Below, piece after piece: positions 24,443 to 60,455 of a stretch of DNA of 60,493 bases. The DNA is from Candidatus Fraserbacteria bacterium (GTDB taxonomy: Bacteria; Bipolaricaulota; Bipolaricaulia; RBG-16-55-9). The stretch is taken from assembly GCA_037442925.1 (NCBI GenBank), contig JBBIPG010000004.1:1-60493 (forward strand). Direction: 5' to 3'. The translations under genes were made by a program, and so were the position numbers. The notes beneath the pieces are model-generated. The model saw nothing but the letters and a program-made list of their open reading frames with translations. It was not told the DNA's origin and searched no databases. Each line of letters opens with the position of its first letter. The stretch's first letter is position 1.

Positions 24443-24892
24443 ATGGGCTGCTGGATCAGCGAAGAGCCGTTGGATCTCAACCGGCTCCTCCAAGAGACAG
24501 AAGATCCCGCTAGCGGAGCGCTCGTGATCTTTAGCGGCACAGTGCGCAACGAGAATGAAGGCCAGCCCGTAAGGGCAATCACGTACGAAGCCCACGTTCC
24601 GTTAGCAGAAAACGTCCTGCGAGCACTCGAAGAGGAAGTTCTCTCGCGCTTCAGCGTACGACGATGTCGGGTCCAGCATAGAATCGGCACGTTGCCGGTG
24701 GGCGAGCCAAGTGCGATCATCGTAGTGCGGGCAGCGCATCGCGCAGAAGCATTCCAAGCTGCTCAGTACGCCATGGATGAACTAAAGCAACGCGCTCCCA
24801 TCTGGAAAGAAGAGCACTATGAGACCGGCGAGAGTCGTTTTCTGGAGGGCACGTCTCTGACTCTGAAGGTGAGTGGAAGACCCAAGCCATGA
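24443..24892 (+). CDS. moaE: Molybdopterin synthase catalytic subunit
   Basis: FSGTVRN, HRIG.L.VGE, AAHRAEAF, PIWKEE. Confidence 0.94.
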   Translation: MGCWISEEPLDLNRLLQETEDPASGALVIFSGTVRNENEGQPVRAITYEAHVPLAENVLRALEEEVLSRFSVRRCRVQHRIGTLPVGEPSAIIVVRAAHRAEAFQAAQYAMDELKQRAPIWKEEHYETGESRFLEGTSLTLKVSGRPKP

Positions 24893-25812: not shown

Positions 25813-26567
25813 TGCCCTTTGAGCTCTGGATTCTCCTGCCTTCGTTCTTCGCTGCTTCGTTCTTGTACTCTTCCGTCGGACACGGTGGAGCCTCCGCCTA
25901 TCTTGCCATCTCAGCCCTAGTAGGGCTCTCTCGCGAGGAGATGGTCCCCATCGCCCTGGCGCTCAACATCGTTGTGGCTGGCATCGGTTTCTGGCACTAT
26001 TGGCGAGCAGGACATTTCTCTAGGCAATTGTTATTGCCCTTCGTAATCACTTCGATACCCGGAGCATTTCTTGGCGGCTCGCTCATCATCTCTCCGCAGG
26101 TCTTCGCCGTGCTACTGGGGTTCACGTTGCTGCTGGCTGCGATACGACTCTTGGGGTTGGGGCGCGAGATTCGTCCCAAGTGGGAAGCGTTGCCTCAGTT
26201 GCTATGGCCTGTGGGCTTGGTCATCGGCGCTGTGTTAGGGGTTCTAGCAGGTCTCATCGGCGTCGGAGGCGGCATCTTCCTAAGCCCACTCTTGCTGTTC
26301 GTACATTGGGCTGATGCGAAACACACCGCGGCTGTTTCTAGTGCCTTTATTGTGCTGAACTCCATGAGCGGGCTGCTGGCGCAGTCGCTTCGACACAGTC
26401 CAAACTGGGATCTTCTGCTGCCACTCCTCGCTTCTGTGATCCTTGGGGGAGGGATCGGGTCTCGCTTGGGTGCCGAGCGTCTTTCCTCGGTAGTGCTGCA
26501 ACGTCTGCTGGGAGGAATTCTATTGATCGCTTCGTTCAAGTTGATTCAGCAGGCGCTCACCAGTTGA
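25812..26567 (+). CDS. TauE/SafE-family sulfite exporter
   Basis: SVGHGGAS, GAFLGG, IGVGGGIFLSP; multiple TM segments. Confidence 0.88.
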   Translation: MPFELWILLPSFFAASFLYSSVGHGGASAYLAISALVGLSREEMVPIALALNIVVAGIGFWHYWRAGHFSRQLLLPFVITSIPGAFLGGSLIISPQVFAVLLGFTLLLAAIRLLGLGREIRPKWEALPQLLWPVGLVIGAVLGVLAGLIGVGGGIFLSPLLLFVHWADAKHTAAVSSAFIVLNSMSGLLAQSLRHSPNWDLLLPLLASVILGGGIGSRLGAERLSSVVLQRLLGGILLIASFKLIQQALTS

Positions 26568-26581
26568 TCGGAGTTTCCCTC

Positions 26582-26611
26582 TTGCGAGCTCTCCCAGCTC
26601 AGTAGTAGAAT
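26582..26611 (+). promoter_or_regulatory. Probable sigma70 promoter of cysS-moeA
   Basis: TTGCGA-N18-TAGAAT. Confidence 0.55.
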
Positions 26612-26628
26612 CTGTCAGGTGATTCCAT

Positions 26629-28050
26629 ATCCTCGAAATCAAGCTGTACAACTCGCTGACGCGACAGAAGGAGATCTTCAAGCCCATCAAGCCGTCGCAA
26701 GTAGGAATCTATTGCTGCGGTCCGACTGTCTATGATTTCGCCCATCTGGGGAATCTGCGCACGTATGTCTTTGAAGATCTTTTGAGGCGTATGTTCGAAT
26801 ACAATGACTATCACGTCCGTCACGTCATGAACATCACCGATGTGGGACACCTGACGGGAGACAACATCGGTGACGCCGATCTGGGCGAAGACCGCATGGA
26901 GCGAAGCGCCAGGCTCCAAGGCAAGTCAGCCTGGCAGCTGGCCAAGTTCTATACCGATAGTTTCTTCAAGGATGTGGAACGACTGAATATCCGAAGGCCG
27001 CACGTCATCTGCAAAGCTACGGATCATATTCGTGAACAGATCGCGTTGGTTCAGAAACTCGAACAGAAAGGCTACACCTATCGAGCCTCCGATGGCATCT
27101 ACTTTGATACCTCGAAGCTTGCTGGGTACGGGAAACTCGCGGGCCAGTCCCGTGACGATCGCTTGGCCGGAGCGCGCGTCGAGGTCAACCCCCAGAAGCG
27201 CCATCCGGCTGATTTTGCGCTCTGGAGGTTCTCTCCTCAAGAAGGGCAGCGACAGATGGAGTGGGACAGCCCCTGGGGCGTCGGTTTCCCCGGCTGGCAC
27301 GTCGAGTGCAGTGCCATGAGCACGAAGTATTTAGGGCAGCCCTTCGATATTCACTGCGGCGGTGTCGATCACATCGCGATTCATCACACCAACGAGATAG
27401 CCCAGAGTGAGGCGGCCGAAGGGAAGACGATGGCCAACTACTGGCTGCATGGGGAGTTCATGACCGTAGCCGGTCGACGCATGGGCAAGTCGGAGGGCAA
27501 TGCCTATCTGGTTGAGGACCTGATCGACCGTGGCTTCGATCCCTTGAGCTTTCGCTATCTATGTCTCAACACGCATTACCGTGTGAAGCTCAACTTCACG
27601 TGGGAGGCATTGGAAGCCGCCCAAAATGCCCTGGAACGCCTGCGCGAGCATGTTCGCAGCCACAAAGAATCGGGCGTAACAGCCAGAGAGGGCGAGGTCT
27701 TGCCGGATGTGCGTGCTCCGTTTTACGAGGCGATCAACGACGACTTGAACGTGCCTGCGGCGTTAGGGTTCGTCTGGGAGCTCATGCGTTCGGATCGATC
27801 GCCGGAAGACAGGCTTGCCACTCTGGAGGATTTCGATCGCGTGTTGGGGCTGAGATTGGCTGAAGTGAAGCTTACCACAACAGAGGTCTCCAAGGAAGTA
27901 CAGCAGCTCCTTGCCCAACGTGAGATGTTTAGAGCGAGGCGTCTCTGGAAGGATGCAGATAAGATTCGCGACGAACTCCAGCGCATGGGGTATGCGATTG
28001 AGGACACGCCTCAAGGCCCCAAGGTGAGGAAACTTACGCGCAGCCCGTGA
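26629..28050 (+). CDS. cysS: Cysteine--tRNA ligase; probable non-canonical ATC start
   Basis: The frame upstream of the ORF-track TTG encodes LYNSLTR, CGPTVY and HLGN; downstream GWHVECSAM, HCGG, HHTNE, MGKS. AGGTGA SD lies 6 nt before ATC 26629. Confidence 0.93.
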   Translation: MLEIKLYNSLTRQKEIFKPIKPSQVGIYCCGPTVYDFAHLGNLRTYVFEDLLRRMFEYNDYHVRHVMNITDVGHLTGDNIGDADLGEDRMERSARLQGKSAWQLAKFYTDSFFKDVERLNIRRPHVICKATDHIREQIALVQKLEQKGYTYRASDGIYFDTSKLAGYGKLAGQSRDDRLAGARVEVNPQKRHPADFALWRFSPQEGQRQMEWDSPWGVGFPGWHVECSAMSTKYLGQPFDIHCGGVDHIAIHHTNEIAQSEAAEGKTMANYWLHGEFMTVAGRRMGKSEGNAYLVEDLIDRGFDPLSFRYLCLNTHYRVKLNFTWEALEAAQNALERLREHVRSHKESGVTAREGEVLPDVRAPFYEAINDDLNVPAALGFVWELMRSDRSPEDRLATLEDFDRVLGLRLAEVKLTTTEVSKEVQQLLAQREMFRARRLWKDADKIRDELQRMGYAIEDTPQGPKVRKLTRSP

Positions 28051-29261
28051 TGATCTCGGTCGATGAGGCATTCCAGCACTACAAGCTAGAGATTTCTTCA
28101 CTTCCCATTGAAGACGTATCTCTGGACGAGGCGCTGGGCAGAGTATTAGCGAAAGAGCTCTATTCTCAGATAGATCTGCCGCCCTTCCCACAGAGCGCGA
28201 TGGACGGCTATGCGTTGCGGGCGAAAGACACGAAGAATGCAACATCCGAGCGTTCCATTCGACTGCGCCTAACAGGGGAGATTTCTGCAGGACGGCTCAC
28301 CCAGATCCCTTCACTAAAACCTGGAGAAGCCATGCGCATCTTCACGGGTGGCTACGTGCCGCAGGGAGCCGATGCCATCTTGCGCCAAGAAGATGCTCAA
28401 GTGAAAGAGGGTTGGTTGCTTGTGCGCCATGCGCTGCTGTCAGGCACGAATCTTCGAGAGCAGGGTGAGGAGGTTCCAAAGCACGAACGTCTGGCGACAG
28501 CAGGGACGCGACTGACGGCCGGGCATCTGGCCGTCTTTGCGATCGCGGGTGTGGAGCGAGTGAGCATACATCGTGAGCCAAGGATCGCCATACTCACGAC
28601 GGGGGATGAGGTCGTGACGGTGGGGAACCCGCTTGCGCCCGGTGAAGTTTATGATTCAAACACGCCCCTGATAACAAGCTGGCTACGCTCACAAGGCTAT
28701 ACGCACATTGATGCTATGCATTTGCCTGATAATCTCAAGGGCATAGAGAAGGCTCTTGGCGATGCATTTGCGGGGTCAGATCTTGTGATCACAGCAGGTG
28801 GGGTTTCTGTGGGCGAGCGGGATTTCATTATGAAAGCTGCCCAGAGCGTGGGCGTGCGCGAGATCTTCTGGAAAGTTCGACAGAAGCCGGGTAAGCCGCT
28901 CTTCTTTGGGATGCTCAACGAAAAGCCTCTTTTGGGGCTGCCGGGCAACCCCGGCTCCGTGTTTGTCTGTCTGGTCACCCATGTGAGGAGAGTGTTGGAT
29001 CTCTTAGAGGGCGTTTTGCCTCCCGGTCCGATCTTTCATAGGGGCCGATTGCGCGAGCGTCTGGAGTCGGCTTCCACACGGGTATGGTGGGTGCGCTGCC
29101 GCTTAGAATCCTCTCCCGATGGCGGAATGGGGCTTGTGCCGCTGCCGCATCAATCCTCTCACATGATCACGAATCTTACAGAGTGCACGGCCGTAGTCCG
29201 CCTGCCTGAGGGTGTGGGCGCTTTGCAGAGTGGAAGCGTCGTCTCGTGGACCCCTGTATGA
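28047..29261 (+). CDS. moeA: Molybdopterin molybdotransferase
   Basis: SAMDGYA, IFTGG..P.GADA, TTGDE, DSN, GGVSVG..D, QKPGKP, LPGNP. Confidence 0.95.
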   Translation: MMISVDEAFQHYKLEISSLPIEDVSLDEALGRVLAKELYSQIDLPPFPQSAMDGYALRAKDTKNATSERSIRLRLTGEISAGRLTQIPSLKPGEAMRIFTGGYVPQGADAILRQEDAQVKEGWLLVRHALLSGTNLREQGEEVPKHERLATAGTRLTAGHLAVFAIAGVERVSIHREPRIAILTTGDEVVTVGNPLAPGEVYDSNTPLITSWLRSQGYTHIDAMHLPDNLKGIEKALGDAFAGSDLVITAGGVSVGERDFIMKAAQSVGVREIFWKVRQKPGKPLFFGMLNEKPLLGLPGNPGSVFVCLVTHVRRVLDLLEGVLPPGPIFHRGRLRERLESASTRVWWVRCRLESSPDGGMGLVPLPHQSSHMITNLTECTAVVRLPEGVGALQSGSVVSWTPV

Positions 29262-29388: not shown

Positions 29389-29750
29389 GGGGGTGACTGG
29401 ATTCGACGGGGATGTCGAAGTGAAGGCAGCAGGTGGAGTTGGCCGTCCACTCCCAAATCAGGCGGCACAGCACGATAAGTGCCAACGAACTAGCTTACGC
29501 TGCTCCTTCCCTGAACTAAGAGAGGGAGCCGTTCGCCTGAGTCTCTGCCCGTAGGACACAGGACGAACGTCGAACATGCGGGCTGGCTCCTCAGAGAGTC
29601 TCCGTCTAAGGAGCGAGAACACAGGAGGCTTGGACACGAAGATCCGGTCTTGCGGGAGCTTTGTGTCTGAAAACAAGACGCAAGACTAAGCCTGTAGAAG
29701 CCAAGCAGAGGCATCTTCGGACCCGGGTTCAAGTCCCGGCACCTCCACCA
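29389..29750 (+). ncRNA. ssrA: tmRNA (one-piece)
   Basis: 5' GGGGGTGACTGGATTCGACGGG; 3' T-arm CCGGGTTCAAGTCCCGG then CACCTCCACCA; resume context ATAAGT-GCC. Confidence 0.96.
29481..29519 (+). other. tmRNA tag reading frame: ANELAYAAPSLN*
   Basis: GCC AAC GAA CTA GCT TAC GCT GCT CCT TCC CTG AAC TAA, directly after the ATAAGT upstream motif. Confidence 0.8.
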
Positions 29751-31156: not shown

Positions 31157-32914
31157 TCAGTGCCTGACCACACAGAAGGGCAATCCCCGAATCTCCAGCG
31201 GACGGCTGTTATCGGGCGAGTGCACAACCATGCGCCCTTTTTCAAAATACGGGAGCGCCTTCTGATACTGCTTGGGAGCTCCGGCCCGCTCCGCCATCCC
31301 CTGCTCCATGCCTAACAAGATCCTGGTGCTGACTTGCGAGAGGACAGCCTCGCTCACATCTTGCGGGTTTTGCGTGATGAGCACAAGCCCCAATCTGTTC
31401 TTGCGACCCTGCTTGGCTGCCGTCACGAATTTTTCGGCGATGATGCGGTCTTGCTGGGTTTGAGCTTGCGTGAGGTAGCTATGGGCCTCGTCCACAGCCA
31501 GTATCACGGGATATTTCGCGATGCGTCGCCCCCAATCTGTCTCGATGGCCTTGGTCTTGGCATCGGCGATCAACGACATAACAGCCAGCACGACGACTCG
31601 CTCGCCCTCCGCGCTCAGGTGATTCGTCGGGAAGACGCTCACCTGATCCTCTCTGAAGATACTGTCGTAGAGTTTGGTAATGGAATTGGCTCCCTGATCG
31701 AAGATGTGGGCAAACTGGGGTAGCAGGACCCGTCGGCGGATGGCTCCCAGGGTCGCCTCGTGGATGAAGCCGCTGGCGAGATAAGGCTGCATGCGCGCTT
31801 CCTCTTCGAGGAATCGCCGAAAGGCCAGATACGTCCTGTCTTGTGAGTCTTTGAAGAAGTCTCGGATGAGGCGCTCGAGCGCTGTATACTGGGCTTCATT
31901 CAGCTCTCCTCCGGCGATGAGGTAGGGGAAATCGCCCACCAGCTCAAAGGGGATCATGAAATCGGTGTGGGCATCGCAGCCATGATAAGAACATCCGGCT
32001 TCCACGGCCGAGAAGACGGTCAACTTCTGGCCCACTCCACCCACTTTGGCGCCCACACCTACGAGGTTGTCTCGTTCTTCTGGCGGGACGCTCGGGAACT
32101 CAGGGTTCTCATCGCGGAGTCCCCAATACTCATTCTCAGGATCGATGATCACAAGGCACGGCTTGCGCTGCTCTCCGCCGCGTCGCTCCAGCGTGTACTC
32201 TGAACCCACAATCTGTCTTAGGAAGTTCTTGGCAGTATGCGTCTTACCCCGGCCGCTCATTCCGGCGATCAAGACGTGCGTAAAGATCAGTGGATCGCCC
32301 GTCTTCTTCGCATCGTTGATCAAGTAGTACGGGATCTTAAAGCCTCCGCTGAGCGTGATCGGCTCGCCGTTGACGGCCACATAGCCTAAGAAGAGTCCGT
32401 CATCGGGAAGATCAAGGCCCAGCACCACTTCGTCCTTGCTGGTGACACGCCGGACGAGCGCATTGGGTTTCGGGAGATAGCGGACTTCTGTCGGCAATCC
32501 TTCGGCGCTGATCATCGAGATGGGTTCAAGCTCCGCAAGCTGTATGTATTCGTCCTCTCCGACGGATTCCGCGCTGAGGAGCACGTGCACTTCACTCATG
32601 TCGTCGATGGCGTCACGTTTGCGATATGAGAGTCTCTTGACATACGCAAACAGCTTTTCGTCTCGATAATCGAGTGGGATGACGACATATTGGCCGACAG
32701 CCACATCGTTGCGCTTCCCTTCAGGAATGTAGACTTCAATGCAATGCTCTGTAGTGCTGATGAAAAGCTCCTCCGAGATGGCGACACGCCCGATCTCCTC
32801 GGGTTTGAGAGGTCTAATGCCTGCGCGCTCGTCTTCTGGTGTCATAACCCGTTCGGTAGAGCGCCTGATTCTCTCCAGTTCTTTGTCGAGATCGAATTCT
32901 TCTTGCTTTGCCAT
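31157..32914 (-). CDS. herA: HerA-family DNA translocase/ATPase
   Basis: N-terminal HAS-like region, GMSGRGKT, IIDPENEY, VDEAH, KQGRK..LGLVLITQNP. Confidence 0.85.
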   Translation of the reverse strand: MAKQEEFDLDKELERIRRSTERVMTPEDERAGIRPLKPEEIGRVAISEELFISTTEHCIEVYIPEGKRNDVAVGQYVVIPLDYRDEKLFAYVKRLSYRKRDAIDDMSEVHVLLSAESVGEDEYIQLAELEPISMISAEGLPTEVRYLPKPNALVRRVTSKDEVVLGLDLPDDGLFLGYVAVNGEPITLSGGFKIPYYLINDAKKTGDPLIFTHVLIAGMSGRGKTHTAKNFLRQIVGSEYTLERRGGEQRKPCLVIIDPENEYWGLRDENPEFPSVPPEERDNLVGVGAKVGGVGQKLTVFSAVEAGCSYHGCDAHTDFMIPFELVGDFPYLIAGGELNEAQYTALERLIRDFFKDSQDRTYLAFRRFLEEEARMQPYLASGFIHEATLGAIRRRVLLPQFAHIFDQGANSITKLYDSIFREDQVSVFPTNHLSAEGERVVVLAVMSLIADAKTKAIETDWGRRIAKYPVILAVDEAHSYLTQAQTQQDRIIAEKFVTAAKQGRKNRLGLVLITQNPQDVSEAVLSQVSTRILLGMEQGMAERAGAPKQYQKALPYFEKGRMVVHSPDNSRPLEIRGLPFCVVRH

Positions 32915-32943
32915 GGTCCTCACTCATCCCCCTCGTGGGAGTC

Positions 32944-34212
32944 TCACATCAGTTCACTCCGGCTCTGATTATAGCTCCAATCGAGGTCAATCCCGCAGGC
33001 GCGAATCAACGCGGCACTCTCTTCTTCGGTGATACGGGCTCGGCTGTCCGCTCGCCGGATCGCAGGCGGAACCCCTTTGCCCTGGGCGATCTCTGCCAGG
33101 ATTTGCGCACGTAACCGTTCGGGTTCATGTTTCTCAAAGACGATGCGCGGGCACTCGACTTTCAGCACGGCTTTCACCCTCGGATCGTACACGTAGAAGA
33201 AACAGACGTGGTAAGCGCGGGACGGGTGCATTAATTCAAACGATCCCAGGCGCTCAAAGATATCGAAGCTCTCTACGCTCTGTCCTCGACGCTGCGGAAG
33301 CGAGTAGCCCTCCTGCACGAACCAGTTGGTGTACCCAATGGCATCTTTGGGCGTGTTGCTGAGCACAGCCCGCATGAACTGTGCATCGCTGGACCAGTTG
33401 TGGGATTCTGGCTCCAGCGTGAATTCCAAGAACCATGAGGTGCTCGGGTTTTTGTTGAAGCCCACTATAGCAAACCCACGTGCGGCAAACTCCTCGACAA
33501 CTCGCACGGGCTGAGCCAAGATCTCAATAGCGGGCTTCCACTCCGTCCAGCTTGCTCTTATGCCGTTCTCTTCCGGCCAGATCTGATCTTCTCCGGAAAG
33601 ATAGTAGTAGAGCCCTATGGGGTATAGATTCCCATCCAGAATCCAGAGGCCCTGCTGCGGCTTGAGTTCTTGCCGCATACGTCGAGCGTGATACGACTCA
33701 GCTGCCATTCGGGCAAGTCCCCCCACGACGCGCTCAACCTCGTGCTCCAGATATGTCCGCGAGATATGAATTCTCCAGAAGTGAACGTACTCATCTTGAG
33801 ATGTCTCAGATTTTGCGCCACCTAGATCTGTCCTCTGAGAGTGAGAGACCAGTGAGAGCGAGCGAAAGGCCTCCAATGGGAGGTCTTTGTGGCGAGTATC
33901 TGGATCACTGGACAACACGGCTTGATAGGCGCAGAGCATGGTGCCGTTCTCCAATTGCTGGAGGCGTGTGCTGCCACCATCAATGGCATACACGGGCTCA
34001 TACTCTGGGAACGAATAAGCGGCCAACTGCAATACGCTCTCGGAGCGATACTCCAGAGGAGTGAGTGCTTGTATTGCTCCCTTGAGGTGCAGCTTCTCGA
34101 ACAACTGGCGGGCTTCCTCGCGGTGGTTGGGGCTCAGGCGTTGAACTTGTTCGCCGAAGGCTTTCAGTTGATTTCGTAACGTCTGCTTGGCTTCGTTGGA
34201 GAGCATCCTCAT
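32944..34212 (-). CDS. nurA: NurA-family nuclease
   Basis: YAIDGGS, ESYHA, ILDGNLYP and C-terminal G.G.P.AI..AD..ARI; sits between rad50 and herA. Confidence 0.78.
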   Translation of the reverse strand: MRMLSNEAKQTLRNQLKAFGEQVQRLSPNHREEARQLFEKLHLKGAIQALTPLEYRSESVLQLAAYSFPEYEPVYAIDGGSTRLQQLENGTMLCAYQAVLSSDPDTRHKDLPLEAFRSLSLVSHSQRTDLGGAKSETSQDEYVHFWRIHISRTYLEHEVERVVGGLARMAAESYHARRMRQELKPQQGLWILDGNLYPIGLYYYLSGEDQIWPEENGIRASWTEWKPAIEILAQPVRVVEEFAARGFAIVGFNKNPSTSWFLEFTLEPESHNWSSDAQFMRAVLSNTPKDAIGYTNWFVQEGYSLPQRRGQSVESFDIFERLGSFELMHPSRAYHVCFFYVYDPRVKAVLKVECPRIVFEKHEPERLRAQILAEIAQGKGVPPAIRRADSRARITEEESAALIRACGIDLDWSYNQSRSELM

Positions 34213-36620
34213 CTCACCCGATAGACGCGGCTGGTGTTGTCTGCGGTCTTCTCCGTGCGATACTCGTGATCGGCTCCTTCGACAAGTCCCAATTCGTGCG
34301 AAACCACAATCACTTGACCAATACGCCCACCCAGTTCTTCCAGTAGAAACTGCAAGCGATTCACCCGCTCGCGATCCAAATAGATCGTGGGCTCATCGAG
34401 GATGAGCGGCATGCGACTGCTGGCTTGTGCCAGCACCTGATGGATCGCTGAACGAAGTGCGATATTGATGAGCGCTCGCTCACCACCGGAGAGCAGATCA
34501 GGCCGAATGGTACTTCCGTTCTTGAGTTCTACCGTGATATCGTAGTCCTCGGACACGCGTACGCCACGGTAACTCGCGCCCGAATCCATGAGTCGAAAGA
34601 ACTGATTGAAATAAAGCTCAAGGGCCTTGATGTTGCGCGTGCGTAGTTCCCTTTTGAGTGCACCATAGAATTCTGTGAGCTGCTCGAGTTCCGCTTGAAG
34701 GCGCTCGATTGCGGTCAGTTCCGCATCGTTCTGTGCGAGTTCTTCTCTGTACTTCTTGAGCTGCTCCAGTTGAGTGTCAATCTTCCCACGTTCTTGGTGT
34801 AGAGCGCCGATCTCTTGCTCCCGTTGCTTCTTTTGATCCTTGAGCTGCTGTAGCACGACCAATACCTGCTGTGATCTCTTCTCCAGTTCAGCGATATCGG
34901 GCAGACTCCTCTTGATATCTGCAACCTTGGTGCGGATACGGGTCAGCTCATCTCGAAGGGATTCCATGCTCTCCATGAGCGTCTGGCGCTCCTCTTTTCG
35001 CTGGAACCCCTGGTCTTTGATCTGCAGGAGGCGTAGCGCCTGCTCCTTCAGTTGTTCGAGTTGAGTCCGTCGGTTTGCCAGCGCCCTGAACTCTTCGTTC
35101 AACTGCTGGACGGCTTTGTCGGCTTCCCTCTTTAGGGAGCCGATCTCTGCCTCTAGAGTCTGGAGTTTCTCTCTCTCTCGTTGGACTTCTGAGTTCAACT
35201 TCACAAGCGACTTCTCTTTCTGTTTCAATGTGGCGCTATACGTGTTTTCGTGTATGGGTTGCTTGCAGGTCGGGCACTTGCCTTGTTGAATCAGCGCGTC
35301 CATCTCTTCGAGTTCTCGTTGGAGGTTCCGCTGCTGGGTCTCTGCCTGCGCCATGGATGTAAGCAAAGACTCTTTCTCTTTGGAGAGGTTGTCAAGCTGT
35401 TCGGCCATGCGCTTTTGGCGTTCTTGCGTCTGAGAATGGAGGGCTTCTTGCCGTTCGTTCGTTCGCGTCAACTCTTGAGGCAGAATTTCAAGTTCTTCCC
35501 AGTTCGAGGCCTTGCTGAGGGATTTTATCACGGGTTCTTTGGACAATCCCAGCTGCGTGAGCGCTTTGCCGAACTGCGTTTCCAGCTGTTTATATCTCTG
35601 CTTTAGGCTCTCCCGTTCCTGGTCACATTGCTGGACTCTCTTCTCCGCATCGCGAAGTTGCTTCTCCTTCTGCGTGAGTTCTTCGGTACGTTCCTGGATT
35701 TCACGGGTCTGTTCCTCGATGCGCCGGAGTCTCTCCTTAAGACCATGCTGGAGCTCTTCCGCTTGGGAGATCTTCTGCTCAAGTTTTTGGAGTTCAGCTT
35801 GCTGGGCGCGGAGTCTCTCTTCGAGATCTCCTCGGCTTCTCTCGAGATTCTGTCTTTCTCGTTTTTCAATCTCACGCTTCAAGTCTGAAGAGAGTGTGCG
35901 GAGCACATCCAGCCGACGATTGAGAGCTCGTTGCGCCCCTTCTTGTGCTCGCTTGGCGTAGCGATCCAGCTTTTCAAGTCGCAGCAGTCGATCGATCATG
36001 CGACGACGTTCTTCCTCGCTCGTGCGGATCAGCCGATCGATCTCTCCCTGGCGTACGTAGACGCAGTTGGTAAAGTCATCGCGGTTCATGCCGAACAGTT
36101 CTTCAATAGCTTGAGCAACATTCTCGACTCCGAGCCACTCCTCGCCGTCATCGCGACTCAGGCGGCAGTCCTCTTTCTCACTGATGACATGGTCTCCGCG
36201 CCGTCGTAGAGCCATCTGGGCAAGATAACGCTGTGTTCCATGGGAGAATGTGAGCCGCACAGAACCGACATCGGCTCCGATGCGAAGGATATCTGGGAGA
36301 GAGCGATCCATTGCCGGACCGGCTTTGCTCCCATAGAGAGCGAAGAAGACGCTCTCCAGCAGTGAAGATTTCCCGCTGCCGTTGGGGCCCGCGATTACGG
36401 TGACTCCATCTTCAAAGGCGATCTCGGCGTGTTCATAGCACCAGAGGTCTTCAATCTGGAGGGATTCCAACTGCATGGCAGGGGTATGAGATTCCTTCGG
36501 GAGAGTTGGATGCCTCTTGCTTGGCGGTGGACTGGTGGGAAGATCTCTTTCAACGGGCTCACGTTCGCCCTCGGTGCGGGTGAGCAAATCTAGCAGACTC
36601 TGTTCCTTCTTCTTGGGCAT
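34209..36620 (-). CDS. rad50: Rad50/SbcC SMC-like ATPase
   Basis: GPNGSGKSS, Q-loop YVRQGEI, coiled coils, Zn-hook CPTC, LSGGE, LDEPT, VSH. Alternative start at ATG 36476. Confidence 0.93.
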   Translation of the reverse strand: MPKKKEQSLLDLLTRTEGEREPVERDLPTSPPPSKRHPTLPKESHTPAMQLESLQIEDLWCYEHAEIAFEDGVTVIAGPNGSGKSSLLESVFFALYGSKAGPAMDRSLPDILRIGADVGSVRLTFSHGTQRYLAQMALRRRGDHVISEKEDCRLSRDDGEEWLGVENVAQAIEELFGMNRDDFTNCVYVRQGEIDRLIRTSEEERRRMIDRLLRLEKLDRYAKRAQEGAQRALNRRLDVLRTLSSDLKREIEKRERQNLERSRGDLEERLRAQQAELQKLEQKISQAEELQHGLKERLRRIEEQTREIQERTEELTQKEKQLRDAEKRVQQCDQERESLKQRYKQLETQFGKALTQLGLSKEPVIKSLSKASNWEELEILPQELTRTNERQEALHSQTQERQKRMAEQLDNLSKEKESLLTSMAQAETQQRNLQRELEEMDALIQQGKCPTCKQPIHENTYSATLKQKEKSLVKLNSEVQREREKLQTLEAEIGSLKREADKAVQQLNEEFRALANRRTQLEQLKEQALRLLQIKDQGFQRKEERQTLMESMESLRDELTRIRTKVADIKRSLPDIAELEKRSQQVLVVLQQLKDQKKQREQEIGALHQERGKIDTQLEQLKKYREELAQNDAELTAIERLQAELEQLTEFYGALKRELRTRNIKALELYFNQFFRLMDSGASYRGVRVSEDYDITVELKNGSTIRPDLLSGGERALINIALRSAIHQVLAQASSRMPLILDEPTIYLDRERVNRLQFLLEELGGRIGQVIVVSHELGLVEGADHEYRTEKTADNTSRVYRVR

Positions 36621-36682
36621 AGTCTCTCGTGAGGAGTATAGTTGAACGAGTCAGGGGAGAGCAATGAACTTTGGGAAAATTA

Positions 36683-37732
36683 TTACGGTCTCTTCACTAA
36701 CGTTTCGAGCAACTTCGTGACCTCTTCGTCCACTCTCGAATCAGCGACCTTCGGATGGCGAATGATGCCATCGATATCACGAGTCGCCTCCGAGACGTTC
36801 AGTTGTGCCAGCCGTTCGGAGATGAGCGCATCGAGATTGCCGAACTCGAGTTGCACATCCACCCCCTGCTCCCCTTCACTCGACTCTTCTCGTTGGTCTC
36901 GCACACGCACAGCCAAAGCTCCTCGCGAGCGCGCATGTTCCTCAATCTCTTGAACGCGGTGCCCATCACGCGACAGATACACACAGACGACTGCACCCTT
37001 GAGCTGATCTCGATGGGCATCGATGCTCTTGATGGGATCTTCCTCTTCACTGATGTAGAGAAATCTGCGAGTAGGGAGTTCGCGGCGATCCAAGCGTCCC
37101 CTCTTAAGATCGATCAGACTCACTCCTCGCGGCTCGCGCTCATCCAGGCTCCAGCGCTCGGTGCTGCCGGGATACGTGATGAGCACATTCTTATCGTGCC
37201 AGATCTGATGCTCATGATAATCCCCCAAGAGCACATACGGAGCGCCGCAGGCAACTAGATCATCGTAGCGCAGCTCGCCATCGGCGCGGATGCGGTCTAT
37301 CAGCTGATGGCAGACCAGTACGTCTCCCTTTACGTGGAGCAGTTTTACATCGCGACGGCCCGCGTAATCCATGCCATAAAACTTCACACCATGGAGTTCG
37401 TACGGCTCTGAATTGAGATGTACTGCCAAGCCAAGCTGAGCGAAGAGATCGAGCCACTGCACTCCGCGCCGCTGCTCGTGGTTGCCCACGACCCCCAAAA
37501 ACGGGATGCCCACCCCTTTCAACTGGAAGAGCGTCCGAAGCGTCTCGTGAAGGTCTTCTGCTGTGGGATACCGATCATCGAAGAGATCACCAGAATGAAC
37601 GACGGCATCCACTTTTTCTCCGATAGCGATCTCAATGACTTGATGGAAGGCGTGAGAAAAATCAGCTCGCCGTTCTTCAAGACCATACTGGCGGCTGCCG
37701 ATGTGTGTATCCGCCGTGTGGAGGACTCTCAT
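36683..37732 (-). CDS. mre11: Mre11/SbcD nuclease, euryarchaeal-like
   Basis: ADTH, HSGDLFD, VGNHE, LLGDYH, YPGSTER. Confidence 0.92.
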   Translation of the reverse strand: MRVLHTADTHIGSRQYGLEERRADFSHAFHQVIEIAIGEKVDAVVHSGDLFDDRYPTAEDLHETLRTLFQLKGVGIPFLGVVGNHEQRRGVQWLDLFAQLGLAVHLNSEPYELHGVKFYGMDYAGRRDVKLLHVKGDVLVCHQLIDRIRADGELRYDDLVACGAPYVLLGDYHEHQIWHDKNVLITYPGSTERWSLDEREPRGVSLIDLKRGRLDRRELPTRRFLYISEEEDPIKSIDAHRDQLKGAVVCVYLSRDGHRVQEIEEHARSRGALAVRVRDQREESSEGEQGVDVQLEFGNLDALISERLAQLNVSEATRDIDGIIRHPKVADSRVDEEVTKLLETLVKRP

Positions 37733-43183: not shown

Positions 43184-44170
43184 ATGAAGCGGGAGCGGAT
43201 CGTCTCAGGCCAGAAGCCCACAGGAGAGACACATATCGGCAACTACTTTGGGGCCAATCGCAACTGGGTAAAGCTCCAAGACCAGTACGAGTGTTTCTAC
43301 TTCATTGCCGATTACCACGCCCTGACGGAGGATTGGGATGCTGGAGAACTCCAACGCGATACTCTTCACATGGTGCTCGATCTGTTGGCCTGCGGAATAG
43401 ACCCTGAGAGGTCCGTGCTCTTTTTGCAATCCGACATCCCGGAGCATACGGAGCTCTGCTGGATCTTCAATAATTTGACGGGCTTTGGAGATCTATTGCG
43501 CATGACTCAATTCAAGGAGAAGCGCGAAGAGGCAACGGAGGAGTTCGTGAGCGTGGGACTCTTTGATTACCCGGTGCTCCAAGCCGCCGACATTCTGATC
43601 TATCACGGGGCGAAGGTACCTGTGGGTGAGGACCAGTTGCAGCATATTGAGATCACTCGCCGCATCGCGCGGCGTTTCAACAGCCGTTTCGGTGAGTACT
43701 TCCCCGAGCCGGAGGGAATCTTGAGCGAAGCACCCCGCATTATGTCTCCCGCTGACCCTACAAAAAAGATGAGCAAGAGTTACGGGGACAAGCACGTCAT
43801 TCGCCTGATGGAGCCGGAGAATTCGATTGAGGAGAAGATCAAGACGGCCGTGACGGACGTAGGGCCGCGGGGACAAGAGATGAGCCCCGGCGTTGAAAAC
43901 CTGTTCTTGCTCCTCAAGCTCTCGGCTCCCCAGGCGGTCTATCAGCAGTTCCAAGCAGAGTACGAACGTGGTTCCCTCAAGTATGAGCCGCTCAAGCGTG
44001 CGCTCTTCGAGAATCTCATGACAACGCTTCACCCCATCCGTGAGCGGCGCAAGAGGCTTCGTGAGAGCGATGCCAAAGACGTACTCAAAGCGGGTGCCGC
44101 GAAGGCGGGCAAAATCGCACGAGAGACCCTCCACGAGGTCCGGCGACGCATCGGGGTTGGAATCTCCTAA
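43184..44170 (+). CDS. trpS: Tryptophan--tRNA ligase
   Basis: SGQKPTG..HIGNY, YPVLQAADIL, VPVGEDQ, KKMSKS. Confidence 0.97.
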   Translation: MKRERIVSGQKPTGETHIGNYFGANRNWVKLQDQYECFYFIADYHALTEDWDAGELQRDTLHMVLDLLACGIDPERSVLFLQSDIPEHTELCWIFNNLTGFGDLLRMTQFKEKREEATEEFVSVGLFDYPVLQAADILIYHGAKVPVGEDQLQHIEITRRIARRFNSRFGEYFPEPEGILSEAPRIMSPADPTKKMSKSYGDKHVIRLMEPENSIEEKIKTAVTDVGPRGQEMSPGVENLFLLLKLSAPQAVYQQFQAEYERGSLKYEPLKRALFENLMTTLHPIRERRKRLRESDAKDVLKAGAAKAGKIARETLHEVRRRIGVGIS

Positions 44171-44264
44171 AATCATAAAGTCTTCGCATAGGTAGAGCAT
44201 TTCTTCCACTTTCAAGACGTGGCTTTTAACGTTTTTTTAACGTTTGGGGTGTATAGTAGTCAGT

Positions 44265-44373
44265 AGGGGCCCGGCTTGGGCAGGGGGACACCCCGGGATG
44301 GGGAGAACTGGCGGTGGATTTTCCCCGATAGGGTGTAAGAGGGCGCGGTTCGAGACTGTAGAGTCGGGCCCCT
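44265..44373 (+). ncRNA. Putative ~109-nt structured ncRNA (compact 6S-like or tRNA-like)
   Basis: 12-13 bp terminal helix, internal long hairpin, small TTCGAGA-loop hairpin, and upstream TATAGT -10 at 44252-57; lies in a non-coding gap. Confidence 0.65.
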
Positions 44374-44403
44374 CTTCTCTCATCTTTCGTGCGACTCTGC
44401 CTT

Positions 44404-45981
44404 TCACGAACAGACGAGCGGCAGGAGTCGTTGTAGCTGTTGCAGGGAAGAGGGGGCGAACTGAGGAATTACCGTTGGGTTTGCAGGTTGGGTATCGGCA
44501 TTGGCAGACATGATGTCATTGGTGTTCTGCCCGGTGTGGTTCAACCCGAAGAGATGGCCCAACTCATGGGAAGCGACCGTTGCCAGAATGATATGAGCGG
44601 AGTTCCGGGATATGCGAGGGCCACTGGCTGGGACGAAGCTTCCCAAAAAGACCCGCGCCGTGCCAAAGCGGAAGCCCAAAGGAGCACGACCCAAAACGCT
44701 GCCTTCATTCTCAGGGCCGAAGAGAATGGCGGCAAACCCTCGAATGGGTTGTGAGAACGTGAACCGCACGTTCACTCCACGGTACTGTTCTTCCATGACA
44801 CGTTTCAATTGAGGCAAGAAAGAATCTTCCAATTCCTCGATACTCAAGCCTGTCAGTTCCACCAGAAGTGGAAGAGCATCCGCTCGGATCTCCAAGTAGG
44901 CGTATTGGCCGCAGCGGTTGAGCGGTGAGCCCAACTCCACAGCGAGCACCGACACGTTGTTGGCGTCATCGAGTTCGGGAATCCGACCTGTGGCGTCGGC
45001 CTGAACCCGGATGAGCCTCTCTCCCTCTTCCGCAACCCACGAGGCTTCCAGCTGGATGGTCCCACCGGCTGCCAAGCCTGCAACGGATTGAGTTATGACC
45101 GACTGGCCGTCCACTTGAAATGAGACCTGGAAACCGGATGCGGTGCCTAAACCTTGATTGACAACCGTGGCGCGCAGCGTCGCCACTTCGCCCAGTTGGG
45201 GGGCCGGTGGCTCGAGCTGAAGATCACGAACGACCAGATCGGCTCCCGTAGGCTCAGTGAATGAAACATCAAAGAGCTGCGTCAGGGTGTTGTTGCCCTC
45301 TTCGGATTCGCTGACCGTTCCAAAGCGATCCGCAAATAACCAGATGACCTGTGCGCCTTCCGCAGCGATCCATCGGGCTTCGACTGTCTGTTCTTCTCCG
45401 CTCTTTAACCCTGAAAGGAAGAGCGTGGCGATGGATCGAGGTCCTACTCCCATCCGTACCGCGAACCGGTCGTTAATATCTTGTGTGCCCTGATTGCGCA
45501 ACGTAGCCAGAACCCGTGTCTCTTCGCCGGGTTTGGGATGTTCGGGGACAAGAGTCAGTTTCGTGAAAGTCAAGTCCGCACCGTACACGAGCTGTAAGGA
45601 GAGAACGTTGTTCTCTTCGTTGGATTCCGCAACACGACTGGGAATATCCACTTCCACGCGAAGATTCTGCATGCCAGCGGTGACGACCCAGGGCGCTTCG
45701 ATGCGGGTCTCCGCTTGGGATCTAAGTTCACCGATGAACTGCGAGTGCTGGGGAAGATTGTTGATCTTAAGCAGCACCCAAAATCCTCGGGCATCTCCGG
45801 CACCTTGGTTGGCCACAGTCGCCGTGATCTGTGCCGCTTCACCTGGTCTCGCATCAGCAGGCAGGACTGCTAAGCGGGTGGGAATCAAGTCCGCAAGAGG
45901 AGTCGCAGGGGGCTGAGCCCCTTGAGATTGCCAAGCAAAGATCGTGGTCAAAAGCAAGATGAACGCAGTCGTTCGTATCAT
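44404..45981 (-). CDS. Secreted protein with three CARDB-like Ig domains and a C-terminal metzincin domain
   Basis: Signal peptide; repeats (A)DL...V.NQG...ESNE.NN; HELGHLFGLNH plus IMS Met-turn. Confidence 0.85.
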   Translation of the reverse strand: MIRTTAFILLLTTIFAWQSQGAQPPATPLADLIPTRLAVLPADARPGEAAQITATVANQGAGDARGFWVLLKINNLPQHSQFIGELRSQAETRIEAPWVVTAGMQNLRVEVDIPSRVAESNEENNVLSLQLVYGADLTFTKLTLVPEHPKPGEETRVLATLRNQGTQDINDRFAVRMGVGPRSIATLFLSGLKSGEEQTVEARWIAAEGAQVIWLFADRFGTVSESEEGNNTLTQLFDVSFTEPTGADLVVRDLQLEPPAPQLGEVATLRATVVNQGLGTASGFQVSFQVDGQSVITQSVAGLAAGGTIQLEASWVAEEGERLIRVQADATGRIPELDDANNVSVLAVELGSPLNRCGQYAYLEIRADALPLLVELTGLSIEELEDSFLPQLKRVMEEQYRGVNVRFTFSQPIRGFAAILFGPENEGSVLGRAPLGFRFGTARVFLGSFVPASGPRISRNSAHIILATVASHELGHLFGLNHTGQNTNDIMSANADTQPANPTVIPQFAPSSLQQLQRLLPLVCS

Positions 45982-47255
45982 CGCCGGATCACATCTGCTC
46001 CTACATAGTCTCGTAAGACCTCCGGTATCACTACAGTGCTATCGGGCTGCTGGTTTATCTCTACGATGGCACTCAGGAGCCGGGAGGTCGCAAGCCCTGA
46101 ACCGTTGAGTGTATGCACAAATTCGGGTTTGGCTCCCGGTTGGGCACGATAGCGAATGTCCCCGCGGCGAGCTTGATAATCCGTACAATTGCTGCACGAA
46201 GAGACCTCGTAGTAGCGCTTCTGAGAAGGAATCCAGACCTCGAGATCATACGTCTTCGCCGATTGTCCGGCGATATCACCAGTGGGCAGAAGGACTACCC
46301 GATAGTGCAAGTCCAGTGCCTGCAATACGGCCTCGGCATCCTGCACTAAGCGCTCCAGTTCATCGAACGAGTTTTCGGCGCGGGTGAACTTGAAGAGCTC
46401 TACTTTGTTGAACTGGTGCACGCGGATGAGCCCCCGCTCCTCTTCGCCTGCAGCGCCGGCCTCGCGACGGAAACAGGCCGTATAAGCCACGTACTTAAGG
46501 GGCAGTCGGTCTCCATCAAGGATCTCTCCCCGGTGGAGGCTGCACAGCAACGTCTCGGCCGTTGGGTTCAGGTAGAGGTCGTCCTTCTCAATGTAATATA
46601 CGTCGTCTTTGAACTTGGGGAGCTGCGCGGCTGTGAACATCGTCTCGGAGTTGCCGAGATACGGGGGCAGGATGGGGATATAGCCGGTCTTCTTGAAATG
46701 AAAATCCAAGAAGAAGTGAATCAATGCCATCTCGAGTCGTGCCCCCCAGCCCTTGTAGAGCGGGAAACGGGCTCCGGCAATGCGGGCGGCCCGCGGGAAA
46801 TCCAGAATACCCAACTCTTCGCCCAGATCGAGATGATGCTTCGGCTCGAAGTCGAACGTCGGTCTGGCCTTGTGCTCGCGCACCACGATCTTGTCTTCTT
46901 TGCGCATGCTGACGGGCACGCTCTCGTGTGGGACGTTGGGCAGGCGAATGAGAATCTCATTCAGTTCTGCCTCTACAGATGTGAGTTCTTTCTCGAGCCC
47001 CTTGATGCGGTCAGCGATCTGGCGCATCTGGCGAATGCGTTCTTGGGCTTCTGCCTCTCGTTTGCTGGCTTTTAAGCGGGCAATCTCGTCGGAAGCTTCA
47101 TTGCGCTGATGCTTGAGGGTCTCTACTTGTTGGATCAGCTTGCGTCGGCGATCATCGAGTTCTAAAAGCGGCGCTAAGCTCAAAGAGGGTTCTCGCGTCT
47201 TGAGCTTTCTTTCGATCTCTTGGGGGTTCTCGCGAATCGCCTTCAAATCCAGCAT
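45978..47255 (-). CDS. serS: Serine--tRNA ligase
   Basis: MLDLKAIREN, LPNVPHESVP, PTAE, FRREAG, HQFNKVE, EVSSCSNCTDYQARR, TLNGSGLA. Confidence 0.97.
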   Translation of the reverse strand: MLDLKAIRENPQEIERKLKTREPSLSLAPLLELDDRRRKLIQQVETLKHQRNEASDEIARLKASKREAEAQERIRQMRQIADRIKGLEKELTSVEAELNEILIRLPNVPHESVPVSMRKEDKIVVREHKARPTFDFEPKHHLDLGEELGILDFPRAARIAGARFPLYKGWGARLEMALIHFFLDFHFKKTGYIPILPPYLGNSETMFTAAQLPKFKDDVYYIEKDDLYLNPTAETLLCSLHRGEILDGDRLPLKYVAYTACFRREAGAAGEEERGLIRVHQFNKVELFKFTRAENSFDELERLVQDAEAVLQALDLHYRVVLLPTGDIAGQSAKTYDLEVWIPSQKRYYEVSSCSNCTDYQARRGDIRYRAQPGAKPEFVHTLNGSGLATSRLLSAIVEINQQPDSTVVIPEVLRDYVGADVIRR

Positions 47256-47354
47256 GACGGTGACAGCATTGTAGCGAGGAGCATCTGCTCTGGCAAGCGA
47301 AGGCTCCTCTTCCGCTTGCAATGTGAACGCTGACCTCTCATGATGAGAGGAGCC

Positions 47355-59031: not shown

Positions 59032-59078
59032 GCACGATGCCAGTTTCGGCAAAGGCGAAGGCCATCCAGAAAGGAGAC

Positions 59079-60239
59079 ATGCTCGTGTTTTCTCACCGTG
59101 ATCTAGAGAAGCTGCTTACAACTGAATCAAACCCCCTCTTGAGTGTGTATCTGAACACGGACCCTTCGCAAGACCCTAAGGGTTCGTATCGTATCTGGTT
59201 GAAGGATGCGCTGAAGACCCTGGAGGGAAGGGTCGAAGGCTCGGAGCAGAAGCGCTTCCGCGAGGCTGCAGATCACGTCCATGCTCATATGAAAGAGTTT
59301 CGCGCTCAAGGGAAATCTTGGGTGGCTTTTGTGGGGAATGGGCTTGTTGAGCAATACGATTTACGGGTCCCCGTGGAGAACGAGGTCCAGTGGGGGCGAC
59401 CAGAACTTACCCAGCTGGCGTGGCTTTTAGAGGAGTATCGCCCTTACGGGATTGTTTTGGTCGACTCCGAGAAACTGCGTTTTTTCATCGTGGTGATGAA
59501 CGAGATTTATGAGATGAACGACCGGACGCTGGAACTGGACACAAGCGGCTGGCGAAGGAAGGAGATATCACCCCCTTCGCAGCCTCGGGGAACTCCCGTG
59601 CGCGGATCGGTTCGCGGTGGCAACGAGCGAGACGCTTTCGTCGAGCGCGTGAGAGTCCAGACCGAAAAGTTCTGGAGGGAAGCGTCCGGTGTGCTACGTC
59701 GTCTCAACGAGCTTCATCAAGCGGAGAAGCTCGTGCTGGGAGGGCCCAAAGCCATTCGGGAGCGTTTTATGCAGACGCTGGGAGCAGAGAGCAGTAGAGT
59801 CATCGGGCAGATCTCAGTACCCTTAGAGGCTTCGCCTTCGGCTGTGCTAGCGGAGAGCGTGTCTGTGATCCAGACTCATGAGCGCACGCAAGAAATACAG
59901 GTTGTCGAAGAGCTTCTGCGACGGGCATCGACCAGCGATCGGGCGGGTGTGGGGCTACTGCCAACGCTCAAAGCTTTGCAGGAGAGTCGTGTGGAGCGAG
60001 TCATCGTCAATAGGCGTCTGGAAGCGACCCTCAACGAGTGTGTCACTTGTGGGTATGCTTTTGACAGATCGGAAGAGAAATGTCCGAACTGCTCGTCGAC
60101 GCAAGTGAAGCGCACCTCGCTGCGAGCCCTCTTGCCGGTGCTCGTCCGCCGCCATGGGGCTAGGCTGGAGATTATCCGGCGTCCGGCGGCAGAGAAGCTC
60201 GCTCCTCACGGGGGTATCGGGGCATTGTGGCGATATTAG
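59079..60239 (+). CDS. Bacterial aeRF1/pelota-superfamily (baeRF-like) protein with C-terminal Zn ribbon
   Basis: LSVYLNTDP, IVLVDSEKLR, LVLGGP, GL..TL.ALQE.RVERVIV, CVTC..CPNC, GGIGALWRY; AGGAG RBS before ATG 59079. Confidence 0.8.
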   Translation: MLVFSHRDLEKLLTTESNPLLSVYLNTDPSQDPKGSYRIWLKDALKTLEGRVEGSEQKRFREAADHVHAHMKEFRAQGKSWVAFVGNGLVEQYDLRVPVENEVQWGRPELTQLAWLLEEYRPYGIVLVDSEKLRFFIVVMNEIYEMNDRTLELDTSGWRRKEISPPSQPRGTPVRGSVRGGNERDAFVERVRVQTEKFWREASGVLRRLNELHQAEKLVLGGPKAIRERFMQTLGAESSRVIGQISVPLEASPSAVLAESVSVIQTHERTQEIQVVEELLRRASTSDRAGVGLLPTLKALQESRVERVIVNRRLEATLNECVTCGYAFDRSEEKCPNCSSTQVKRTSLRALLPVLVRRHGARLEIIRRPAAEKLAPHGGIGALWRY

Positions 60240-60245
60240 ACAGAA

Positions 60246-60317
60246 GGGCGAATAGCTCAGCGGCAGAGCGTCCGCCTTACACGCGGAAGGTCCCAGGTTC
60301 AAATCCTGGTTCGCCCA
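60246..60317 (+). tRNA. tRNA-Val(TAC), CCA not encoded
   Basis: Cloverleaf GGGCGAA/TTCGCCC, anticodon loop CT-TAC-AC, T-loop TTCAAAT; discriminator A followed by CCC. Confidence 0.96.
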
Positions 60318-60334
60318 CCCCACGCACCTGGAGC

Positions 60335-60378: not shown

Positions 60379-60455
60379 GGGGGTGTAGTGTAGCGGCCTA
60401 ACACGCTGCCCTGTCAAGGCAGAGACCGCGGGTTCAAATCCCGTCATCCCCGCCA
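60379..60455 (+). tRNA. tRNA-Asp(GTC), CCA encoded
   Basis: GGGGGTG/CATCCCC acceptor stem, CT-GTC-AA loop, TTCAAAT T-loop, G + CCA end. Confidence 0.96.

Follow-up and report, generated by a model that had tools for sequence, protein, structure and literature searches.

The spacer of 233 bp that separates trpS from a gene for a CARDB-domain metalloprotease in Candidatus Fraserbacteria holds the locus of a predicted small RNA (sRNA). The DNA in question is a stretch of 60,493 nucleotides (the window; GenBank assembly GCA_037442925.1, contig JBBIPG010000004.1, positions 1 to 60,493 of the forward strand). Comparison with five other Fraserbacteria lineages indicates that the locus very probably belongs to a real family of conserved, structured RNA genes. 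The ancestral long form of the RNA spans about 150 nt, and the 109-nt short form in the window (predicted RNA at 44265-44385, + strand) is a derived deletion allele. The best overall explanation, offered tentatively, is a regulator-controlled, base-pairing small RNA of a narrow Fraserbacteria clade that is truncated in the window. The RNA constitutes a new family of a familiar kind, the lineage-restricted bacterial small RNA, with a putative function. An earlier note on the window, made from the letters alone, had proposed an unannotated structured RNA gene in this spacer. All of the features that it listed are present in the sequence where it had placed them. The gene itself, on the + strand and with a promoter of its own, is borne out by its homologues and by covariation, and it corresponds to no Rfam family.

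Among named genomes, metagenome-assembled genomes of Candidatus Fraserbacteria carry the nearest relatives of the window's TrpS, and Bipolaricaulota/Acetothermia come next. Synteny led to homologues of the RNA in five other Candidatus Fraserbacteria lineages. They lie downstream of trpS in L032 (Fraserbacteria RBG_16_55_9), in L082 and, with an insertion, in L086, and beside protease homologues in L190 (also L191 and L192) and L193, where the 3′ part of the RNA is masked by Ns. A covariance model, R1, was built from the six sequences and run on the window and 95 loci (640 kb). It matches the RNA of these six lineages exclusively. The match in the window extends over 44260-44385 with 80.3 bits (E = 4.8e-15), and the RNA is present there in single copy by the same model.

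The six sequences share a secondary structure that is supported by compensatory change. RNAalifold predicts 32 pairs for them, 12 of which are compensated. In the structural model adopted for the family, composed of helices P1, P2, P3a, P3b and P4, 96.9% of the cells are standard pairs and 13 pairs have changed on both sides. None of 500 column shuffles reached this level of pairing and compensation, and controls in which the partner strands were slid were 39-53% paired. Covariation among relatives had been named in the earlier note as a way to check its gene, and the 13 compensated pairs across six sequences supply it. The 10 core pairs of P1, as well as P3a and P3b, are paired in every sequence with letters there. 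P1 is the closing stem of the family, 12-14 bp long, paired in all five of the sequences that cover it and compensated on both sides at four pairs. Its arms in the window occupy 44265-44277 and 44361-44373 (+ strand). The closing stem recognized in the earlier note, which joins AGGGGCCCGGCT (44265-44276) to AGTCGGGCCCCT (44362-44373) through 12 pairs including one G-U, is therefore retained as a covarying element of the family.

The P3 rod of the long form comprises about 9-12 bp (P3a) and 8-9 bp (P3b) on either side of a symmetric internal loop rich in U. In P3a, CCAUCG/CGGUGG is replaced by UUGCUG/CAGCAA in L193, and one G-C pair becomes A-U in L032. In P3b, UCACUGUC/GACGGUGA is replaced by UCGCUGCC/GGCGGCGA in L086 and by UCACCAUCC/GGAUGGUGA in L190. 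The two U-runs of the internal loop between the two helices vary jointly in length (4/4, 4/5, 3/3, 3/3 and 4/4). P3b is capped by an apical loop of 9-11 nt with a variable 5′ part and a 3′ part that reads CACCUCC in all five long forms. CACCUCC is the anti-Shine-Dalgarno (anti-SD) sequence of the 16S rRNA 3′ end. The RNA is assigned to the + strand because its G-U pairs in P1 and P3 turn into A-C mismatches when the opposite strand is read. A coding function was ruled out, since no reading frame is open or conserved across the homologues.

Long-form homologues fold significantly better than their shuffled counterparts, with z = -3.2 and -2.8. The window copy gives z = -0.88 on the + strand, where 38 of 200 shuffles fold as well, and z = -0.14 on the − strand. 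The relatives are thus needed to judge the locus, as the window fold alone is not exceptional.

The G-rich junction is highly conserved, with GGCAGGG and GAUGG invariant. P2 is a local hairpin with a GGG/CCC core (44281-44295 in the window, + strand). Its stem is invariant and 90% paired without covariation, and its loop varies in length and sequence. P2 competes with a pairing of ACACCC (44288-93) and GGGTGT (44331-36) that the earlier note had described. This pairing exists in the window, but it is only 81.5% paired in the family and is mismatched in three other lineages. Compensation is confined to the window (A-U, A-U) versus L190 (G-C, G-C), and the helix is a possible component of the RNA fold. 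A similar qualification applies to the hairpin GCGG-TTCGAGA-CTGT (P4; 44345-44359, + strand), in which the note had seen a T-like arm. The hairpin is present in the window, but a T-arm does not hold as a feature of the family. P4 has three to four pairs, none of them covarying, with mismatches at the closing position in L086 (G-G) and L190 (A-G). Of the five sequences that extend over the T-loop-like hairpin, four share CGCGGUUCGAGA without change; L190 has GUACAGG where the others have UUCGAGA.

The same nucleotides can enter an alternative helix, P5, in which (G)CGGUUC pairs with the junction sequence GAAUCG(C) over 6-8 bp and encloses P3. P5 is 86.7% paired, with a U-G pair replaced by C-G in L086 and by U-A in L190, and it is part of the minimum-energy fold in both L032 and L086. 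In the window it spans the deletion junction, as read from the sequence, by pairing GAACUG (44305-10) with CGGUUC (44346-51, CGGTTC in the DNA). Another arrangement, a two-state switch in which GACGGUGA pairs with an upstream segment together with GGGGAAGA/UUUUCCCC, has its pairs present in all long forms, with the register of L193 adjusted by hand. It is 4-13 kcal/mol less stable than the P3 rod, shows no compensation and was not adopted. A G-quadruplex (GGG-CA-GGGGG-ACACCCC-GGG-AT-GGGG) was rejected, as L082 and L032 do not keep the four G-tracts. Downstream of P1, the 3′ tails are pyrimidine-rich in all homologues. In the window the tail is the CU-rich CTCTTCTCTCATCTTTC (44374-44390, + strand), which ends about 15 nt before the protease stop codon, and the U-rich tail of L082 extends to the protease stop codon itself.

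The window copy differs from the other five lineages by the loss of about 40 nt at a single point (44307-44308, + strand). It is gapped over 40 consecutive alignment columns (55-94), all of which carry letters in the five others. The deleted piece corresponds to the 5′ strands of P3a and P3b plus the CACCUCC apical loop. The five other lineages, from the nearest relatives to those whose proteases diverge most (63% and 57% identity), all carry the long form, so that the short form is the derived state. What the window copy retained is P1, the junction, the promoter and the orphaned P3 strands. The surviving 3′ strands of P3, namely GGCGGTGGA, ATTTT and CCCCGATAGGG (44310-44333, + strand), have lost their partners, and the purine-rich conserved junction GGGAUGGGGAGAA (44295-44307, + strand) pairs in the window with an orphaned P3 3′ strand. 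This is the origin of the hairpin between GGGGAGAA (44300-07) and TTTTCCCC (44319-26) listed in the earlier note. The pairing is real in the window, but it is not a family feature (83% paired, no compensation): it is a by-product of the deletion, made of the junction and the orphaned strand. Long forms use part of the TTTTCCCC strand in another helix, which does covary. The window copy is either a disabled remnant or an RNA that works through its remaining parts, that is, P1, the G-rich junction and the CU-rich tail.

The promoter of the RNA is conserved in its layout. Two direct repeats of TTTAACG (44225-31 and 44236-42, together an 18-bp box at 44225-44242, + strand), 7 nt each, are separated by TTTT and recur with an 11-nt period. 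They are followed exactly 9 nt after the second repeat by a -10 hexamer, TATAGT (44252-44257, + strand; TAnAnT in the family). The box TTTAACG-N4-TTTAACG and the 9-nt spacing to the -10 hexamer recur unchanged at each of the six RNA loci and at L084, a locus that lacks most of the RNA; the box of L002 has one T fewer. The hexamers of the six RNA loci and L084 read TATAGT, TAAAGT, TAGAGT, TATACT, TAGAGT, TACACT and TAGAAT. The P1 stem begins 7-12 nt after the hexamer across the family and 7 nt after it in the window, where the 5′ end of the RNA would lie at about 44264-44265. The promoter-like region with TATAGT that the earlier note had placed shortly upstream of the stem is thereby confirmed and found to be conserved in relatives.

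No TTGACA-like -35 hexamer lies 16-18 nt from the -10 element, and a scan for sigma-70-type promoters was empty at the RNA locus. The box occupies the -35 position instead. Promoters of the -35/-10 type are used elsewhere, as in TTGCAT-16-TATAAT before the transfer-messenger RNA (tmRNA) gene of the window and TTGACG-17-TATAAT in L084. TTAACG-N5-TTAACG resembles the TT(A/T/C)ACA repeats of Bacillus subtilis and the cyanobacterial Pho repeats PyTTAAPyPy(T/A), a likeness that serves as a lead only. Direct-repeat boxes that replace the -35 element about one helical turn upstream of the -10 hexamer are typical of OmpR/PhoB-type activators. The promoter is probably of this activator-dependent, response-regulator type, and switching-on by a regulator of the OmpR/PhoB family is considered probable because the architecture of the box matches that of the family. 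The arrangement of the TTTAACG box (7-4-7, 11-nt period) also agrees with the published definition of the PHO box as 7-nt direct repeats with a 4-nt spacer and an 11-nt period (PMC4415409). Small RNAs driven from pho-box promoters are known (PMC6596454), as are circuits that join two-component systems with sRNAs (PMC9262595). Among the loci scanned, the box occurs only in promoters of the RNA type, plus one match in an unrelated metagenome contig (L158). Neither pst or pho genes nor a second box were found in the window and the loci scanned.

The distribution of the RNA is patchy even among close relatives. Relatives with TrpS 74-79% identical (L002 and L087-L093) have no RNA near trpS by nhmmer or the covariance model, and the same is true of other Bipolaricaulota loci (L003-L013), which come from partial genomes. 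L002, the closest named genome after RBG_16_55_9, keeps the box and the protease gene with the RNA deleted: only about 30-45 nt remain between the box and the protease stop codon (L002:4010-4070). The sequence GGGCCTCTGCTCTTCTTC that follows this box is similar to the 3′ arm of P1 together with the tail, a hint at a deletion from a pairwise alignment that is not decisive. L084 (3545-5887) keeps the box, the -10 hexamer and about 9 nt resembling the 5′ end of the RNA, with no further part of the RNA before the contig end.

The 5′ remnant in L084 is followed by an unrelated promoter (TTGACG-17-TATAAT), a c-di-GMP-I-GGC riboswitch and genes for an OmpR-family regulator and a HAMP/HisKA kinase, the last of which ends 33 nt before the contig end. 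A second c-di-GMP-I-GGC aptamer occurs in L193. The two aptamers (L084:3696-3773, + strand, 63 bits; L193:4955-5029, + strand, 65.7 bits) are located within about 130-220 nt of the RNA promoter box. The one in L084 is downstream of the box on the same strand and ahead of the response-regulator/kinase pair; the one in L193 is divergent and precedes a BNR-repeat gene. No such aptamer is found in the window.

These elements suggest a likeliest mechanism for the family. An OmpR/PhoB-type response regulator would switch on transcription from the + strand promoter, and the exposed CACCUCC loop of the long form would pair in trans with Shine-Dalgarno (SD) regions of mRNAs. Such pairing would block ribosome binding, as is thought for the C-rich loops of RsaE/RoxS, and an effect on the convergent serS-protease transcript would also be conceivable. 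The C-rich loop motifs of RsaE/RoxS are reported to bind SD sequences and to prevent formation of the initiation complex (PMC6158497). SD-like GGAGG/GGAG motifs precede genes of the window, for example AAAGGAGG before trpS. Anti-SD targeting by the family is possible though doubtful. A more ambitious version, in which the RNA would represent a new class of structured regulatory RNA, seems decidedly unlikely. Such an RNA would carry an anti-SD sequence on the tip of a rigid rod of about 25 bp above a G-rich core and, under two-component control, compete with the 30S subunit at many mRNAs or act as a decoy for a factor of the 16S 3′ end. If it were true, the window allele would be a natural loss-of-loop variant.

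Several observations weigh against a regulator-controlled, base-pairing small RNA. The anti-SD mechanism cannot apply to the window copy because its CACCUCC loop is deleted, and in the long forms CACCUCC would match almost any SD sequence, so that a specific target cannot be named. The RNA is dispensable, as L002 has lost the gene and L084 has it disrupted. The G-rich junction has competing folds, with P2 set against the ACACCC/GGGTGT helix and P4 and P5 mutually exclusive. No canonical intrinsic terminator was found at the RNA locus, and the 3′ end is placed only broadly, within the CU-rich tail. With respect to the promoter, the box occurs nowhere else in the window and no regulon emerges from the Fraserbacteria DNA scanned, and the OmpR-family regulator beside the L084 box falls below every NCBIfam equivalog cut-off. 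The comparison itself consists of six sequences from a single narrow clade.

The alternatives include known RNA families. The window was compared by cmscan with all 4227 families of Rfam 15 at the gathering score, and the locus was scanned permissively at E ≤ 10, the threshold for all locus results given here. The whole-window scan returned the tmRNA and two tRNAs only, with nothing at the RNA locus. The permissive scan yielded three chance matches to eukaryotic families for 44150-44450 and one for the long form (L082:3530-3780). No 6S, 6S-Flavo, signal recognition particle (SRP), tRNA, tmRNA, Y-RNA-like, T-box or riboswitch match was obtained for either form. The absence of an SRP motif, claimed in the earlier note, accordingly stands on both strands. 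The note had also suggested an unusually compact 6S RNA; this is not sustained, since no 6S model matches and the compactness itself derives from the deletion of about 40 nt. In the divergent 6S-type RNA that could still be envisaged, P1, the G-rich bubble and a terminal stem built from P5 and P3 would together look like an open promoter and thereby trap RNA polymerase. The long form, at about 150 nt, falls in a size class similar to that of 6S RNA, and if P5 and P3 are taken as the terminal stem it can be drawn as a rod in which an asymmetric internal bubble separates the closing stem from an interrupted distal stem of about 25-30 bp. The Rfam scan finds no other 6S gene in the window, so that part of the note's proposed search has an answer, though for a fraction of the genome only. 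Nevertheless, conservation in the family is highest in the sequence of the apical loop, which is not known to be conserved among 6S RNAs. Close relatives have the gene lost, disrupted or internally truncated, unlike a housekeeping 6S gene; the window copy is without most of the would-be terminal stem; and the promoter looks activator-dependent rather than housekeeping. A 6S-type function is thus quite improbable.

Still less can be said for a tRNA mimic of the YrlA/Y-RNA kind, the other identity put forward in the earlier note, in which a T-arm-like hairpin on the closing stem would be bound by Ro60 or tRNA-handling enzymes. UUCGAGA does fit the T-loop consensus, is identical in four of five sequences and adjoins the P1 3′ strand, so that a 7-nt loop of this type stands beside a long terminal stem as in YrlA, Y RNAs and tRNA-like RNAs. 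The stem beneath this loop, however, has only its three to four non-covarying pairs, L086 and L190 cannot form the closing one, L190 replaces the loop by GUACAGG, and the bases of P4 can alternatively be engaged in P5. No conserved D-loop-like GG partner exists, as the P2 loop varies. ARAGORN makes no call at the locus, in agreement with Rfam, and Pfam scans of most window reading frames of at least 200 aa and several shorter ones found no TROVE/Ro60 gene. In YrlA, the tRNA-like domain is distal to the Ro-binding stem, an order of modules that differs from the one seen here. Taken together, this identity is very improbable. The same can be said of the proposal that there is no gene at all, just an inverted repeat that arose by chance in GC-rich spacer DNA, or else a relic untranscribed in all lineages. 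The window copy, which folds no better than shuffled sequence, agrees with it, but six lineages that share the sequence and the spacing of the promoter, and that have 13 compensated pairs, speak against it.

Two further explanations assign the RNA a different partner. The position of the locus invites a role in cis, since the protease gene (44404-45981, − strand) is convergent with the RNA and stays next to it in every one of the six lineages. The two genes face each other with their 3′ ends, and 5-30 nt separate the RNA from the protease stop codon, so that the transcripts would overlap. The upstream neighbour changes with lineage: it is trpS (43184-44170, + strand) in the window, an inserted gene of 470 aa between trpS and the RNA in L086, and a BNR-repeat gene in L190 and L193. 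Antisense pairing or polymerase collision could then control 3′-end formation, stability or read-through of the serS-protease operon. The tail of L082 that reaches the protease stop codon fits this idea, as does the lack of an intrinsic terminator for either the RNA or the protease transcript. Adjacency in a few close genomes may nonetheless reflect simple inheritance, an antisense role needs neither a covarying, strand-specific structure nor an invariant loop, and L002 has the protease without the RNA. Such a cis-acting role is improbable. Somewhat better placed, yet still unlikely, is a protein- or ligand-binding RNA that would present the loop, the U-rich internal loop and the G-rich junction as recognition surfaces, with CACCUCC as a possible decoy for a 16S 3′-end factor. 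Conservation of the junction and the joint length variation of the U-runs favour it, and the survival of parts other than the loop in the window would explain why promoter and core were kept there. On the other hand, the RNA loci have no consistently adjacent candidate partner gene, there is no likeness to a known riboswitch or protein-binding RNA family, and no gene downstream on the same strand is available for regulation. A regulator-controlled, base-pairing small RNA is therefore retained as the preferred, if tentative, explanation.

Other categories were considered and set aside. A retron lacks an adjacent reverse transcriptase, a T-box has no match, and the end motifs of attC sites were judged absent by eye. 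A CsrA sponge is contradicted by L032 and L190, where the GGA of GGGAUG is lost to AAGAUG. A mobile element finds no sign in its favour, as a distant-mode search of the plasmid collection gave no match to the RNA locus. A repeated element or miniature inverted-repeat transposable element is excluded by the single copy in the window.

Among characterized systems, RsaE/RoxS of Firmicutes come closest to the long form in concept: they are stand-alone sRNAs with a C-rich, SD-complementary motif in an unpaired hairpin loop. They belong to a different phylum and share no sequence or Rfam homology with the Fraserbacteria RNA, which is about twice as long and includes a closing stem and a multi-part junction. 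Moreover, a single 7-nt anti-SD motif is used here, in contrast to the repeated CCCC motifs there, and the window copy is without the motif. PsiR1 of Synechocystis provides a parallel for the promoter, with tandem repeats of 11-nt period that replace the -35 element near the -10 hexamer (PMC6596454). The TTTAACG box is only a putative Pho box, however, not an established one, and PsiR1 is about 500 nt long and may encode peptides, unlike the Fraserbacteria RNA with its lack of a conserved reading frame.

Public collections were also searched with a sequence pattern that combines the T-loop with the P3 3′ strand (TCTCGAACCGCG N14-36 RAAATYCRCC). The viral collection returned one chance match, inside a coding region. 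The metagenome scan returned 95 matches (loci L096-L189), of which only L171, identical to L032, is genuine. The pattern was poorly chosen, as the T-loop sequence is not conserved in L190. About two-thirds of the 95 matches share a conserved sequence that is the antisense of the LFIDEIHR motif of AAA+ ATPase genes, and the rest look unrelated. Motifs of the GGTTCGAGA type in DNA patterns thus call for caution, as they pick up AAA+ ATPase antisense sequence in dozens of unrelated contigs.

Candidatus Fraserbacteria and their Bipolaricaulota relatives are represented by metagenomes only, and the locus provides a candidate sRNA with comparative support. The literature searched, which names Fraserbacteria only in passing, gave no indication that a regulatory RNA has been described for the group. 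The precisely spaced promoter box could serve to identify a two-component regulon, and the natural variants, which are full-length, internally deleted, deleted or disrupted, form a ready-made genetic series. For annotation, the window copy is best entered as the truncated representative of a new sRNA family and not as 6S or tRNA-like.

The remaining observations concern other genes of the window. The serS reading frame (45978-47321, − strand) shares 4 nt (45978-45981) with the protease gene, which starts at 45981. This overlap indicates that the genes for an aminoacyl-tRNA synthetase and a secreted-type CARDB metalloprotease are probably co-transcribed, and the order serS-protease is also found in L082, L190 and L193. 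The tmRNA gene (29389-29750, + strand, 189.5 bits) specifies the tag peptide ANELAYAAPSLN. Genes for tRNA-Val(TAC) and tRNA-Asp(GTC) are located at 60246-60319 and 60379-60455 (+ strand). Directly upstream of them (59037-60239, + strand) is the gene for a 400-aa bacterial archaeo-eukaryotic release-factor-like protein (baeRF family 10). Four genes at 31157-37732 (− strand) encode a HerA-NurA-Rad50-Mre11 set of archaeal style in this bacterial genome; the domains found are HerA (DUF87), NurA, SMC/Rad50-like ATPase (AAA_23, SMC_N) and Mre11-like metallophosphoesterase. A likely defence island at 9511-16814 (+ strand) consists of a 1075-aa fused restriction-modification enzyme of the Eco57I/MmeI type and, after it, a protein of 1086 aa that combines PLD, SNF2 and helicase-C domains. 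Finally, 17358-29261 (+ strand) contains a molybdenum-hydroxylase cluster (large subunit, FAD subunit, XdhC) and a near-complete set for molybdenum-cofactor biosynthesis (two MobA-like proteins, MoaA, a MoaC-MoaB fusion and MoeA), with a TauE gene and cysS interleaved.

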